Shown: positions 12,776 through 17,900, numbered from the stretch's first letter. The stretch is 18,661 bases of DNA from a virus (IMGVR_UViG_2541047899_000006:1-18661); one strand, 5' to 3'. Notes: generated by a model from the sequence alone, not told the origin. Numbers and translations are program-made.

Positions 12776-13365
12776 TGGATACGTTACAGGATGATTATAC
12801 AAAATTGTTGTATGGCCTGATGCCGCCGGGACCTGCATGGTCAGATACCGACGGTGTACTTGACGGTCTGGCACCATCGCTTGTGCGTGTTCACCAGCGG
12901 GCTGATGAACTGGTGATTGAAATCGATCCCGGTCAGTCCACAGAGCTGATTGAACGTTATGAAGAATTGTATGGTTTACCTGATTCCTGTTCCCCTGTCG
13001 GAACCCAGACATTACGCCAGCGTCAGCAACGTCTTGAAGCAAAAGCCAATGTGGCTGGTGGCATAAATGAGCAGTTCTTCCTGGATCAGCTTGAGGCGCT
13101 GGGATATACCGGCGTGACGATCGAACAGTTCCAGAATCTGGATGCAAGCCCCGATCCGGAATGGGGTGATCGCTGGCGTTATTTCTGGCGTGTAACGTTG
13201 CCGGTGGATGCCGGTGCTCAGTGGCAGACATGTACGGATGCCTGCAACACACCGATCCGGACGTGGGGGGATACGGTTGCGGAGTGCGTGATTAATAAAT
13301 TATGTCCGTCGCATACCGTTGTTTTATTTTCCTATCCAGATGAGGATGAAGATGCACAGGATTGA
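12775..13365 (+). CDS. Baseplate / tail-fiber attachment protein (Mu gp48-like, P2 gpI-like)
   Basis: 196 aa; TAATG overlap with the J-like gene. Position is between baseplate J and the tail fiber. The acidic C-terminus (DEDEDAQD) overlaps the fiber gene start. Confidence 0.65.
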   Translation: MDTLQDDYTKLLYGLMPPGPAWSDTDGVLDGLAPSLVRVHQRADELVIEIDPGQSTELIERYEELYGLPDSCSPVGTQTLRQRQQRLEAKANVAGGINEQFFLDQLEALGYTGVTIEQFQNLDASPDPEWGDRWRYFWRVTLPVDAGAQWQTCTDACNTPIRTWGDTVAECVINKLCPSHTVVLFSYPDEDEDAQD

Positions 13366-14362
13366 TACGCTGACAGCGGTAAAAGATAAGTTTGGCCCGG
13401 GCAAGAACGGATTTACTGACGGAAATCTTCGCACAGGACGTCTTGCCACCTGGCTGAACAGTGCCATGTGGGATGCCATTCAGGAGGAAATCTGTGGTGT
13501 CATTGAGAAAGCCGGGATAGAACTGAATAAAGAAGAACACGACCAGCTATATAAAGCCATATTATTACTGGTGGGCGGTGCAATTAACGAAGAGGCATTG
13601 CTGATAAAAAATAATCTTTCGGATGTGGAAGATAAGGATGAGGCTGTTGAAAACCTCGGATTAAAACCCACGGTGGACAAGGCAAAAAATGCCGTTCAGC
13701 GTGATGGCGACACCATGACAGGAAAGCTGACGCTGCCCCAGACCTCCGGATTTGGTGTTAACACTGACAATACCCTGGGAGGTAACTCAATTGCTTTCGG
13801 GGATAACGATACAGGTATAAAACAAAACGGCGACGGCATTCTGGATGTTTATGCGAATGGACAGCATGTATTTCGTTTCCAGAATGGTGTGGCGATAGCG
13901 TTAAAAAATATTCAGGCCGGAAATGCTAAAAAATTCACGTTATCCAGCGCCAACAACTCCACGAAAAACGCAACGTTTAATTTATGGGGTAATTCATCCC
14001 GACCTGTAGTTGCAGAGCTTGGTGATGATTCCGGCTGGCATTTTTACAGCCAGAGAAATACCGATGGCAGTATCACATTCGCTGTAAACGGACAGATGAC
14101 CCCATCAAACTATGGAAATTTCGATGCCCGTTATCAGCAGCGAAATGGCGGCGTGCAGGATGTGCGTTATGGTTCCGAAATGTATTACAACCCGGGAGGT
14201 AACCAGGTATCCTGGACATTTCGCTCACCTTCAGGCCACGGGTTATCCGGTATTAATGTGCAGGAAACCGGAAGTAATTCGGCAGATAACATCGGCGGCG
14301 TGTATTACCGTCCGCTTCAGAAACTGATTAATGGCACCTGGTATAACGTGGCGAGTGTTTAA
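13352..14362 (+). CDS. Tail fiber protein with P2 gpH-like C-terminal receptor-binding region
   Basis: RBS GAGGA at 13342-13346, ATG at 13352; in-frame ATGs at 13340 and 13346 are alternatives. N-terminus MHRIDTLTAVKDKFGPGKNGFTDGN. The C-terminal region (GGNSIAFGDNDTGIKQNGDGILDVYANGQHVFRFQNGVAIALKNIQAG...INGTWYNVASV) closely resembles, from memory, the C-terminal domain of P2 gpH-type fibers. Confidence 0.8.
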   Translation: MHRIDTLTAVKDKFGPGKNGFTDGNLRTGRLATWLNSAMWDAIQEEICGVIEKAGIELNKEEHDQLYKAILLLVGGAINEEALLIKNNLSDVEDKDEAVENLGLKPTVDKAKNAVQRDGDTMTGKLTLPQTSGFGVNTDNTLGGNSIAFGDNDTGIKQNGDGILDVYANGQHVFRFQNGVAIALKNIQAGNAKKFTLSSANNSTKNATFNLWGNSSRPVVAELGDDSGWHFYSQRNTDGSITFAVNGQMTPSNYGNFDARYQQRNGGVQDVRYGSEMYYNPGGNQVSWTFRSPSGHGLSGINVQETGSNSADNIGGVYYRPLQKLINGTWYNVASV

Positions 14363-14364
14363 CA

Positions 14365-14910
14365 ATGTTACATTTAAAAAATATTACTGCGGGTAATCCG
14401 AAAACCGCGGAACAATATCAGCTGACAAAACAATATGGTGTCACCTGGCTTTTTTCGGAAGACGGCAAAAACTGGTATGAAGAACAGAAGAACTTTGCCA
14501 GTGACACCATAAAAATGGTTTACACCGGAGACGGGCGCGTGGTGTGGGTCGGTAAGGATGTGACAGGTATTGAACCCCGTAACGCCAGTGTTATTGAAGT
14601 TCCTGATATTACCGCTAACCGCCGCATTACCGCACCGGGTTACTGGTTCTACCGCAATGATGAATTTGTTTTTGACTACAAACTTAAAGCGGAAGATGAG
14701 CGTGATGCCCTGTTAAAACAGGTCAGCATCATGACCAGCGAATGGGAAAAAGACCTGCTGCTGGGATTAATCAGTGACGAAGACAGGGAGAAGCTGAAAG
14801 CGTACCGCATTTACGCGAAATCGCTGCAGGCGATGGATTTCAGCACCATCACTAATAAAACCTCATATAACGCTATTGAATGGCCCGCCTCTCCGGAAAC
14901 CTCTTCCTGA
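14365..14910 (+). CDS. Tail fiber assembly protein (Tfa / P2 gpG-like chaperone)
   Basis: 181 aa, immediately downstream of the fiber gene. The C-terminal end ...YNAIEWPASPETSS matches the conserved IEWP motif at the end of lambda Tfa-type fiber assembly proteins. Confidence 0.8.
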   Translation: MLHLKNITAGNPKTAEQYQLTKQYGVTWLFSEDGKNWYEEQKNFASDTIKMVYTGDGRVVWVGKDVTGIEPRNASVIEVPDITANRRITAPGYWFYRNDEFVFDYKLKAEDERDALLKQVSIMTSEWEKDLLLGLISDEDREKLKAYRIYAKSLQAMDFSTITNKTSYNAIEWPASPETSS

Positions 14911-14933
14911 TTTAATTTATTGCGAGAAAAACT

Positions 14934-17900
14934 ATGTCTGTAGTGATATCAGGTGCGCTGATTGATGGCGCAGGCATCCCCATGTCCGGATGCCACATAA
15001 TTCTGAAATCCCGGGTAAACACCTCAGAGGTGGTGATGCGCACAGTTGCCGACGTGGTGACAGGAAACTGTGGCGAGTACTGTTTTAAGGCGCAGACCGG
15101 AAAATATTGCGTATATCTGAAACAGGACTGGCGCGACGAGTACTGTGTTGGCGATATTGCTGTATACGATGACTCAAAGCCTGGCACGTTGAACGATTTT
15201 CTGACCGCTCTCGATGAAGGCGACCTCAAGCCGGATGTTGTTAAACGTTTTGAGGAACTGGTGGCGCAGGCGCAGCAGAGCGCGGAAGCGGCAGCGGAAA
15301 GCGAACGACAGGCCGGGCAACATGTCGCTGATGCGCAACAAATCAAGAGCGACTGCGAGACGCTGGCGGATAACGTACAGCAGAATGCAGAAGCCGTTGC
15401 CGAAGATAAAAAGCAGGTGGCACAGCTGGCATCATCTGCCACACAGGATGCCGCCCGCGCAGAGCAGGCTGTCAAGGATGCTGACGCGATAGTCCAGAAA
15501 GCGGTCGATAAACTTGCTGATGCCGCAACGCTGACCGGCGAGGCAAAAGCCAGCGCCGAAGCGGCAGCAAAAAGCGAGCAGAATGCGAAACAGCACAGGG
15601 ACGAGGCGCAACGGATAGTTGATGACCTGAAGGGAGGCAATGCTTCCACGACAGAAAAAGGCCTGGTGCAACTCTGTAGTGATACAGACAACGACAGCGA
15701 AGAACTGGCAGCCACGCCAAAAGCCGTCAAAACCGTCATGGACGAGACGAAAACAAAAGCGCCACTGGACAGCCCGGCGTTCACAGGTACGCCAACCACA
15801 CCAACCCCGCCGGACGATGCGACCGGGCTGGAAACAGCGAACGCGGCATTTGTCCGCAAACTGCTCGCTGCACTGGTTGACTCGTCACCGGAAGCCCTGG
15901 ACACACTGAACGAGCTGGCAGCGGCGCTGGGCAATGACCCGGAGTTTGCGACAACAATCATGAACGCGCTGGCGGGTAAACAACCACTCAGCGACGTGTT
16001 AACCGCTATCAGTAATCTGGAAGAGCGAGCCGATAACCTTCTGTGCTTTAATCAGGACGGGAATGCTTCACTGTCTCCGCTGTCAGAAAAAGCCCGTTTA
16101 TTTCTGTCGCAAAATACGGAAGAAGATATGCGTGCAGAGCTTGGGCTTAAATCTGCAGCTGCAGTTGACGTTCAAAGGACTCTTTATGATGCAGGTGAAG
16201 GATGTGTTGCTTTACCCGGGGCATTTGGTTATGGGATGACGAATGCCGGAAGTACAGTACTTGTCGCCAGCAATATGGGGACAATAGCCAGAACTGCACA
16301 CAACGTACATCCAGGGCGTTATTATACTTTCTCTACGCAAACAGAAGAAACGACCGGAGTAACAGAAATTATCTGGCTGGATAACAACTGGGGCGACAAA
16401 ACCAGCCAGACAGCAACAAAGCTGGTTCTGTTTTTTGGAAAAGACGGACGGATTCTTATGACCGTTCGTGGCGATAATATCTCCGCCCCGGTCACCTGGA
16501 CGAATCTGACGCCACAACTTGGCAATGCAGCACAGAAGGATGCGCAGGAGAATATTTACGACCGCACCGAAGGTCGTCTGGCGATTCCCGGCATGTTCGG
16601 GTTTGGGAAAGCGTTTTCCAGCATCGACAGGACCGAGTTTAAAACAGGAGCTGATTTTCTCCGCTGGGTAAAAATGGCAAAACCCGGACGCTATGCCGTT
16701 TATGCGGATACAAAAGCAGTAATACAGGGCGTGTTGTTCAGTGGTGTTGTTGAAATTATCTGGCCAACACCCAATGACTACCCGACCGATGATAAGGCCT
16801 ATAAGGTCATTATTTTCTACGGTATTAACGGTCATATTTATTACAACCGTTACACCGGAAGTGGTTATCTGGTTGGGTGGGAGAACCTGAAGGTTGATGA
16901 GGCTTCACTCAGGGCGCTGATTGAAACCCGCGCACCACTGAAAAGCCCGGCGCTGACCGGAACGCCGACAACACCAACCCCGCCGGATGACGCAGCAGGC
17001 ACTGAGATAGCCAATGCGGCGTTTGTCCGCAAACTGCTCGCCGCGCTGGTTGACTCGTCCCCGGAAACACTGGACACACTGAACGAGCTGGCAGCGGCGC
17101 TGGGCAACGACCCTAATTTTGCGACGACTGTCACTAAGGCGCTGGCGGGTAAACAGCCGCTTAATGACGTGTTAACGGCGGTCAGCCAGATAACACCGGA
17201 AGAAAACACGCTGCCTTATTTCAGTGCAGAGGGCCGGATTTTACTGGCGCAGCTGTCAGAAAAAGCCCGCGCATTACTGGCACTGGACACGCCTGAAGCC
17301 ATGCGCACGGAGCTTGAACTGAAAGCGGCTGCGACGATGGAGCCCCAGAGCGATATCCGCGACCGCACACCAGGCAGACTGGCACTGTCCGGCATGTACG
17401 GATTCGGTCAGGCATTTGCCAGCACCGACGCTCTGGCGTTTGACGGACAGGCCGATTTTGCTGAATGGCTGAAAGAGGCCACCCCGGGGCGTTATGCGGT
17501 CAGTATTGCGGACTCTTCCACACTACTGGCAGGCACCACAAAATTTAACGGCATCATTGATGTGATGTGGTCGCCTTTTGATAACGATGAATCGGACACA
17601 ACGCGTAAATTCAAAATGCTGCTGTGTTTTAACCAGTATTACGAAGGTGAGCACAGTATTCATCGTCTGACTTACCGCTGGAGTGGAAACAACTGGAATG
17701 CAACAGTAAGCCCTGTCATTTACGACGGCGATTCGCTGGCGTTCTTACTGTCCCGGACAGCAGGCTCAGGCTCATATTTCAAATACCCGGCAGTGGGTGT
17801 TCCGGTGCTTGCTGTTTATCGCGGAACAACTTCCGGGGATAAAGAAATCAAAATTGGCCTGGGTGATGTGGTGCCAGGGTCACAACTGGGCGGAGTTAAT

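Follow-up and report, generated by a model that had tools for sequence, protein, structure and literature searches.

IMGVR_UViG_2541047899_000006:1-18661 is a stretch of viral DNA of 18,661 nucleotides (nt), called the window here, that corresponds to the region of late structural genes in a phiP27-like myovirus prophage. Toward its 3' end lies an open reading frame (ORF) for a Stf-like side tail fiber of 1,042 amino acids (aa), in which a collar sequence is present twice and a module of ~125 aa, designated M, is present three times (Table 1). The Ala/Gln/Glu-rich segment that follows the N-terminal anchor (aa 135-237) would, judging from its composition, form a coiled-coil shaft, and the protein presumably assembles as a trimeric fiber. 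This Ala-rich segment varies in length among relatives, with ~105 additional residues in C311 and CEA224S and fewer in the E. albertii protein P0036. A 26-nt direct repeat was also seen in the shaft region (15279-15304 versus 15552-15577; 88% identity; SAEAAAESE/SAEAAAKSE).

Table 1. Features of the fiber locus, in window coordinates (E, expect value)
Feature	Coordinates	Strand	Evidence
Caudo_TAP tail fiber assembly gene of the first, upstream fiber	14365..14910	+	PF02413, E 8e-24
Stf-like side tail fiber gene, 1042 aa	14934..18062	+	ORF; PF08400, E 3e-61; PF03406, E 3e-15
N-terminal anchor, aa 1-134	14934..15335	+	PF08400 over full profile length, E 3.3e-61; PDB 9e7m "Tail fiber protein", E 1.4e-16
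Ala/Gln/Glu-rich segment, aa 135-237	15336..15644	+	Sequence composition
Phage tail fiber repeat, aa 238-272	15645..15749	+	PF03406 at aa 238-277, E 2.6e-15; matches Mu fiber S, PDB 5yvq/8ju3
Collar copy 1, aa 273-360 (DNA repeat core 15759-16012)	15750..16013	+	Self-comparison; homologue of P1 gene S "repeated element b"
Copy 1-to-copy 2 switch interval of 651-aa variants, within collar 1	15849..15957	+	Sites distinguishing the copies
Linker 1, aa 361-406	16014..16151	+	46-51% identity to linker 2; C-terminal end ELGLKS
M1 module, aa 407-528	16152..16517	+	Module homology, motifs, M tree, AF2 core
M2 module, aa 529-660	16518..16913	+	Module homology, motifs, M tree, AF2 core
Collar copy 2, aa 661-750 (DNA repeat core 16932-17185)	16914..17183	+	Self-comparison; PDB 9d93
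Linker 2, aa 751-798	17184..17327	+	Sequence comparison
M3 module, aa 799-925	17328..17708	+	Module homology, motifs, M tree, AF2
C-terminal tip, aa 926-1042	17709..18059	+	phrog_2636 positions 452-568, E 2e-40
DUF4376 gene, presumed fiber chaperone	18077..18661	+	PF14301, E 2e-17; phrog_1141, E 7e-91

Since the PHROG profile that best covers the protein, phrog_2636, contains a single collar, a single M module, and a single tip, the window gene represents an expanded form. The M modules and the tip have no model in Pfam or NCBIfam. Sequence matches in the PDB were limited to the N-terminal region and to the coiled coil, the fiber repeat, and a collar helix (including PDB 9d93, "Tail collar fibers gp4," which matches aa 695-753 in the collar 2 region at E 1e-10); a marginal match to a sortase was found in M1 (E 0.77). 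The tip is the most variable part of the protein among full-length relatives (57-96% identity).

An earlier reading of this DNA (the original prediction) had proposed a large direct repeat inside the fiber gene, and a repeat search of the window confirmed it: 15759-16012 matches 16932-17185 at 82% identity across 254 nt (E 1.4e-69 for this collar core by self-blastn), whereas a long inverted repeat was not present. Self-blastn also detected a second block in the same register (16067-16159 versus 17240-17332; 70% identity; E 1e-6), such that DNA homology spans ~400 nt in total, in agreement with the original prediction, and is weaker beyond the 254-nt core. The copies are in frame, as had been claimed, although they are 1173 nt (391 codons) apart rather than 1176 nt (392 codons), and the second coordinate in the original prediction was off by 3 nt; across 15757-16170, identity is 72% at an offset of 1173 nt and 30% at an offset of 1176 nt. 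The "long identical runs" attributed to the repeat proved only moderately true, with the longest perfect run measuring 38 nt (15897-15934) and the next ones 20, 18, 17, 17, and 14 nt. At the protein level, aa 273-503 align with aa 664-901 at 50% identity (E 2e-58), and the collar part of this alignment (the first ~88 aa) is 84% identical.

It could be argued that a ubiquitous collar motif simply occurs twice in this gene as a result of convergence or constraint. In line with this idea, high DNA identity is restricted to the 254-nt core, a segment that is shared by otherwise different fiber genes of many architectures in 153 phage records (including P1, P7, D6, Goslar, and Klebsiella and Yersinia phages), and P1 gene S likewise has two adjacent collars. 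The self-alignment nevertheless exceeds the collar and passes through the linker into the M modules, and the short alleles described below bear on the same question.

To estimate the age of the repeat, the collar copies were compared codon by codon, with 47 codons being identical, 26 differing synonymously, and 12 differing nonsynonymously; 34 of the 46 nucleotide mismatches fall at third codon positions. Nonsynonymous divergence (dN) was 0.09 and synonymous divergence (dS) was 0.67 (dN/dS, ~0.13), and in terms of sequence the similarity of the collars appears to be maintained by purifying selection rather than by recent duplication. Two collars, 391-396 aa apart, were found in all of the best 120 protein clusters surveyed (79-99% identity; E. 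coli, E. marmotae, E. albertii, and Salmonella), a number that represents a lower bound. Collars 1 and 2 are 85.3% identical within a gene and 85.4% identical between genes, whereas collars at the same position in different genes are 97% and 94% identical. This equality of within-gene and between-gene identity rules out concerted evolution or gene conversion between the collars. Given that the collar identities within and between genes are equal and that the layout is kept in at least 120 clusters, the two-collar layout is old, stably inherited, and not homogenized.

The original prediction also recognized three divergent modules in the distal part of the gene, and these are indeed homologous, with identities of 31% for M1/M2 (E 9e-15), 43% for M2/M3 (E 2e-26), and 29% for M1/M3 (E 2e-11). 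All three share the motifs G(R)xAxxGxxG(F/Y)G and PGRY and the tryptophan of an I(I/V)W motif. Their starts are marked by short LG(L/N)-type motifs (ELGLKS, PQLGNA, and ELELKA; window ~16137-16151, 16515-16526, and 17313-17327; compare L015, 2375-2400). In AlphaFold2 (AF2) monomer predictions, each M module consists of a ~34-residue leader with a GRLAxPGxFGFG motif followed by a core of one strand, one helix, and four strands. The predicted local distance difference test (pLDDT) score of the leader was <50 in M1 and M2 and ~62-66 in M3, while block means in the cores ranged from roughly 60 to 90, with the M1 core showing the same pattern as M3; M3 and the tip modeled together had a pLDDT of 77.

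An exhaustive profile search that used the three M modules as queries covered 1.84 billion representative clusters and recovered M modules in only 95 of them (a word-indexed search of proteins for which M2 was the sole query gave nothing but 11 fragments). Within these 95 clusters, the modules are combined as N-M-tip, N-collar-M-tip, N-M-M-tip, N-M-collar-M-tip, N-collar-M-collar-M, N-M-collar-M-collar-M, and the window's N-collar-M-M-collar-M-tip. The tip is always single where it is detected and is C-terminal in all but one fragment. An apparent protein with six M copies, P0201, was discarded as a spurious match to an unrelated repeat protein. We also considered whether invertible segments use short "M-tip" proteins of ~260 aa as alternative tip cassettes and found no support for this proposal; the only one checked, P0146, is a contig-end fragment.

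These distributions bear on the possibility that M1 and M2 serve as further receptor-binding domains in their own right, in which case the long fiber would be multivalent and loss of the interval would alter host range. We regard this as unlikely. In most of the 95 clusters, the last M module is followed by a detected tip (about one third, many of them fragments, had none), M modules also lie upstream of collars at a distance from the fiber end (P0188, P0191, and P0192), and no ligand-binding fold was identified for the M modules.

When the M modules were placed in a tree, M1, M2, and M3 fell into separate deep clades, and each clade included modules of other architectures as well. Modules of the M1 type always come first in a pair, and M2-type modules directly precede the tip in P0150 and P0152. 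Because the three modules belong to separate deep clades, the fiber is an old mosaic of different module lineages rather than the product of a recent triplication. The first block (collar 1-linker 1-M1-M2) resembles the distal shaft of other fibers and has no tip, while the second block (collar 2-linker 2-M3-tip) is a complete distal end; since the first block lacks a tip, the gene does not consist of two complete distal ends fused together. The earlier proposal of a fusion or duplication of distal parts therefore stands in the form of an old mosaic, whereas a recent triplication is contradicted by the deep M lineages and the dS of the collars.

For the same reasons, we give very little credence to a recent tandem duplication or triplication of one distal module that was homogenized by gene conversion and serves as a high-frequency, contingency-type switch. 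The 82% DNA identity of the collars with its 38-nt perfect run could be taken to favor such an origin, as could the existence of short alleles and of P0136, an 846-aa protein with the layout N-M-collar-M-collar-M whose two collar-linker-M units are 76% identical. The tandem duplication of the whole unit in P0136 is younger than that of the window, and unit duplication thus recurs in the family. Within the window gene, however, the collars have diverged to a dS of 0.67 and are no more alike than collars of different genes; the M modules are only 29-43% identical and group with modules of other architectures; and the same layout recurs in at least 120 clusters, the most distant of which are 79% identical. 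The collar identities, the M tree, and the dS value largely refute a recent duplication.

The original prediction further held that recombination between the repeats could delete the interval in frame. When the hypothetical 651-aa product (1042-391) that a crossover between the two collars of the window gene would yield was used as a query, four natural proteins of exactly 651 aa (P0229-P0232) were found that are 98-99% identical to it at 100% coverage. The 5' side of these short alleles shares 95-98.7% DNA identity with the window and the 3' side shares 97.6-99.5%, and whole-region alignments to the short-allele loci end at 16012 and restart at 16932. Sites that distinguish the two copies place the switch from copy 1 to copy 2 at 15849-15869 in three loci (L019, L020, and L021), where the interval corresponds to the 20-nt identical run, and at about 15942-15957 in the fourth (L018), beside the 38-nt run; 109 nt of the collar core thus contain all of these switch points. 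E. coli SC418, from a complete-genome collection, carries a similar 654-aa allele (N-collar-linker 2-M3-tip), in which the switch also lies in the conserved collar core. Natural deletion-type products therefore exist as had been foreseen, while the reciprocal duplication product with three collars was not seen among the best matches.

Two other accounts of the short alleles were weighed. If the collar were a ubiquitous motif and nothing more, the short alleles would be independent fibers with shared parts; the nucleotide identity of 95-99.5% on both sides, the clean switch within the collar, and a length of exactly 1042-391 codons make this very unlikely. Alternatively, the short alleles could be artifacts of repeat collapse during assembly. 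Three of the four 651-aa proteins do come from draft genomes or metagenome scaffolds, and draft assemblies do break inside the fiber gene. We nevertheless consider assembly collapse improbable in the extreme, since the copies are too divergent to be collapsed (82% identity, at most 38 identical nt), the contigs are 246-709 kb long, the short alleles occur in different samples and prophage backbones, and a comparable allele is present in the SC418 chromosome.

The backbones that carry the 651-aa alleles differ from that of the window, being Rac-SA53-like near uspF or P2-like near trp. Anchor, tip, and chaperone gene are kept in both the long and the short forms, such that the anticipated variation in fiber length is borne out (651 versus 1042 aa), whereas the anticipated variation in receptor specificity is not. 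Comparison with related prophages, which the original prediction had suggested, thus revealed variants without the exact interval alongside a layout that is conserved in at least 120 clusters. Similarity to other relatives breaks at module boundaries (nt 1079, 1302, 1658, 1953, 2423, and 2957 of the gene); the vB_Apl-pPE4 fiber has a single collar and a different tip, and the A36b fiber has the layout N-M2'-collar-M3-tip.

On a larger scale, a cassette consisting of the 3' end of the first fiber gene, the Caudo_TAP gene, the Stf-like gene, and the DUF4376 gene (window 13775-18646) is common to prophages with other backbones and integration sites at 87-97% nucleotide identity (loci L018-L020, L003, and L007-L012). 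Because the homology runs from the end of the first fiber gene through Caudo_TAP to DUF4376 in other backbones, the cassette moves between prophages. Its backbones are Rac-SA53-like near uspF, P2-like after gpD or near trp, and Mu-like before com/mom, and in every case the cassette closes the tail module. Further prophages carry the Stf-DUF4376 pair without the rest of the cassette, after a P2-type gpD or before Mu com/mom. The changes between short and long forms may accordingly be exchanges between prophages rather than deletions within one gene.

Taken together, these results make it probable that the window encodes a modular Stf-type fiber with an old mosaic join at the collar and that the collars serve as recombination linkers through which a 391-codon block is added or removed. 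In this scheme, homologous recombination inside the collar would have linked an N-collar-linker-M1-M2 shaft with a distal end of the collar-linker-M3-tip type. Being conserved in DNA and in frame, the collars could then act as recombination linkers, and a crossover between collar 1 and collar 2, either within one gene or between the fiber genes of coresident prophages, would remove or add the linker 1-M1-M2-collar block. The outcome would be a short fiber of 651 aa or a long fiber of 1042 aa with the same anchor and the same tip. Here, we infer both the direction of the events and the recombinase involved. Because the tip is retained, the change would be one of shaft length; its functional consequence would be the length or reach of the shaft, not the specificity of the tip.

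Published work provides precedents for such exchanges. Phage Rad52-like recombinases recombined 800-base-pair repeats of 78% identity ~100-fold better than the RecA pathway did, and relaxed homologous recombination allows lambda to pick up stf sequences that resident prophages carry (PMC3945230). Receptor-binding proteins undergo domain shuffling that is both pervasive and still under way (PMC10684548).

Because at least 120 clusters have inherited the layout stably, with no gene conversion, collar recombination is a process on an evolutionary timescale. A faster process, in which the paired collars form a built-in length switch and a single-strand-annealing recombinase deletes the 1173-nt interval at appreciable frequency during induction, strikes us as a long shot. 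Were it true, each burst would contain long and short fibers with the same tip, which could provide bet-hedging for receptors that lie under O-antigen or capsule layers of varied thickness; its purpose would be analogous to that of the invertible G and C segments but would be achieved via deletion.

No new mechanism is revealed, and the variation is an ordinary form of phage tail fiber mosaicism. The locus is a sequence-resolved example of how collars let fibers gain or lose whole shaft blocks while anchor and tip remain untouched. The collar may be regarded as a natural, tolerated splice point for engineering chimeric fibers, and the ~125-aa M module, an uncharacterized fiber module that lacks a Pfam model, is now defined.

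In its genomic setting, the fiber gene shares the window with genes for a prohead protease, the major capsid protein, the sheath, the tape measure protein, a Mu-type baseplate (gpP and Gp45-48-like proteins), and Baseplate_J. Identical copies of the window are found in assembly GCA_000460735.1 and in one metagenome scaffold, where the prophage terminates after the DUF4376 gene and adjoins hyaA. Two fiber-plus-chaperone sets lie in succession (13319-14910 and 14934-18661): a fiber of 336-347 aa (13319-14362) followed by the Caudo_TAP assembly gene and the 1042-aa Stf-like fiber (14934-18062) followed by the DUF4376 gene, an arrangement that suggests a dual-fiber virion. The DUF4376 gene is located 3' of the fiber gene in every related locus with the same or a related tip, and its domain and position make the encoded protein a candidate fiber chaperone. 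A 349-aa ORF on the opposite strand (14912-15961) overlaps the Ala-rich coiled-coil part of the fiber gene and probably arises from the GCN richness of the coding strand rather than representing a gene.

The nearest named protein to the fiber is a "prophage tail fiber N-terminal domain-containing protein" of Escherichia marmotae (99% identity). Many NCBI records, P0004, P0010, and P0012 among them, call the window-type fiber a "shikimate transporter," which appears to be a propagated misannotation. Genes of this type are poorly described, and the present case is of use for their annotation. Short-read assemblies often break inside the fiber gene (for example, in L016, L017 [P0146], and the fragments P0121-P0131), and many entries are contig-end fragments; these breaks are likely caused by collar and linker sequences that recur in several prophages of one genome.

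Several known systems resemble this fiber in part. Like lambda Stf and the Stf homologues of lambdoid and cryptic E. coli prophages, it combines a PF08400 anchor with PF03406 repeats and is followed by a small assembly or chaperone gene. In lambda Stf/Tfa, however, the downstream gene is of the PF02413 type, whereas the window fiber is followed by DUF4376 (PF14301), and the PF02413 gene of the window lies upstream and belongs to the first fiber. The window fiber also differs from lambda Stf in residing in a contractile-tail prophage with a Mu-type baseplate, 3' of a first fiber and Caudo_TAP pair, and in having distal M modules and a tip that no Pfam or NCBIfam model describes. The order of a fiber gene followed by a DUF4376 gene recurs in the Alteromonas phages V22 and A5, where the DUF4376 protein is annotated as a tail fiber chaperone (PMC10579305); the fiber sequence of these phages is unrelated to that of the window. 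Membership in the T4 long tail fiber family (gp34/gp37), with its repeated bead-like shaft domains, is unsupported, with no significant match in sequence or fold.

Another counterpart is gene S of P1, P7, and D6. The collar is homologous to P1 "repeated element b" (45% identity by tblastn to the part of P1 S that runs from b2 into the start of Sv), and a hidden Markov model of the collar matches P1 S twice. Since b1 and b2 are annotated in P1 Sc (GenBank M81956) as adjacent elements of 74 aa each with 63% nucleotide identity, repeated collars in a fiber gene were already on record; in P1 the collars are adjacent, whereas in the window they are parted by a linker and two M modules. The linker-to-M boundary of the window aligns with the P1 Sc/Sv junction VIQYLGLRE, which is encoded by cixR. 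We rejected a functional cix-like inversion site, finding only a degenerate relic in direct orientation at the homologous position, and no invertase gene is present in the window or at the prophage end. The degenerate site and the lack of an invertase thus place the fiber outside the invertase-switched family (P1 Cin, Mu Gin, and p15B Min): P1 Cin/cix acts by inversion, whereas the window type varies through insertions and deletions by homologous recombination. A diversity-generating retroelement repeat was likewise rejected, as the 46 collar mismatches show no adenine bias and concentrate at third codon positions; no reverse transcriptase turned up among the genes scanned or the Pfam calls at the locus, in which no search was aimed at this enzyme.

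Further counterparts are Rac-SA53 "tail3" (KU052037) and the fibers of the E. coli W, P13-6, and A36 prophages, which share the N-collar-M1-M2-collar order at 87-89% nucleotide identity. Annotated simply as "tail fiber protein," Rac-SA53-type fibers have an internal repeat of which we found no description in the literature searched. The Rac-SA53 fiber departs from that of the window where the third M module begins, with a different third module, another tip, and another chaperone. The window fiber is a well-documented instance of a known phenomenon, the modular recombination of tail fibers at conserved in-frame linkers.

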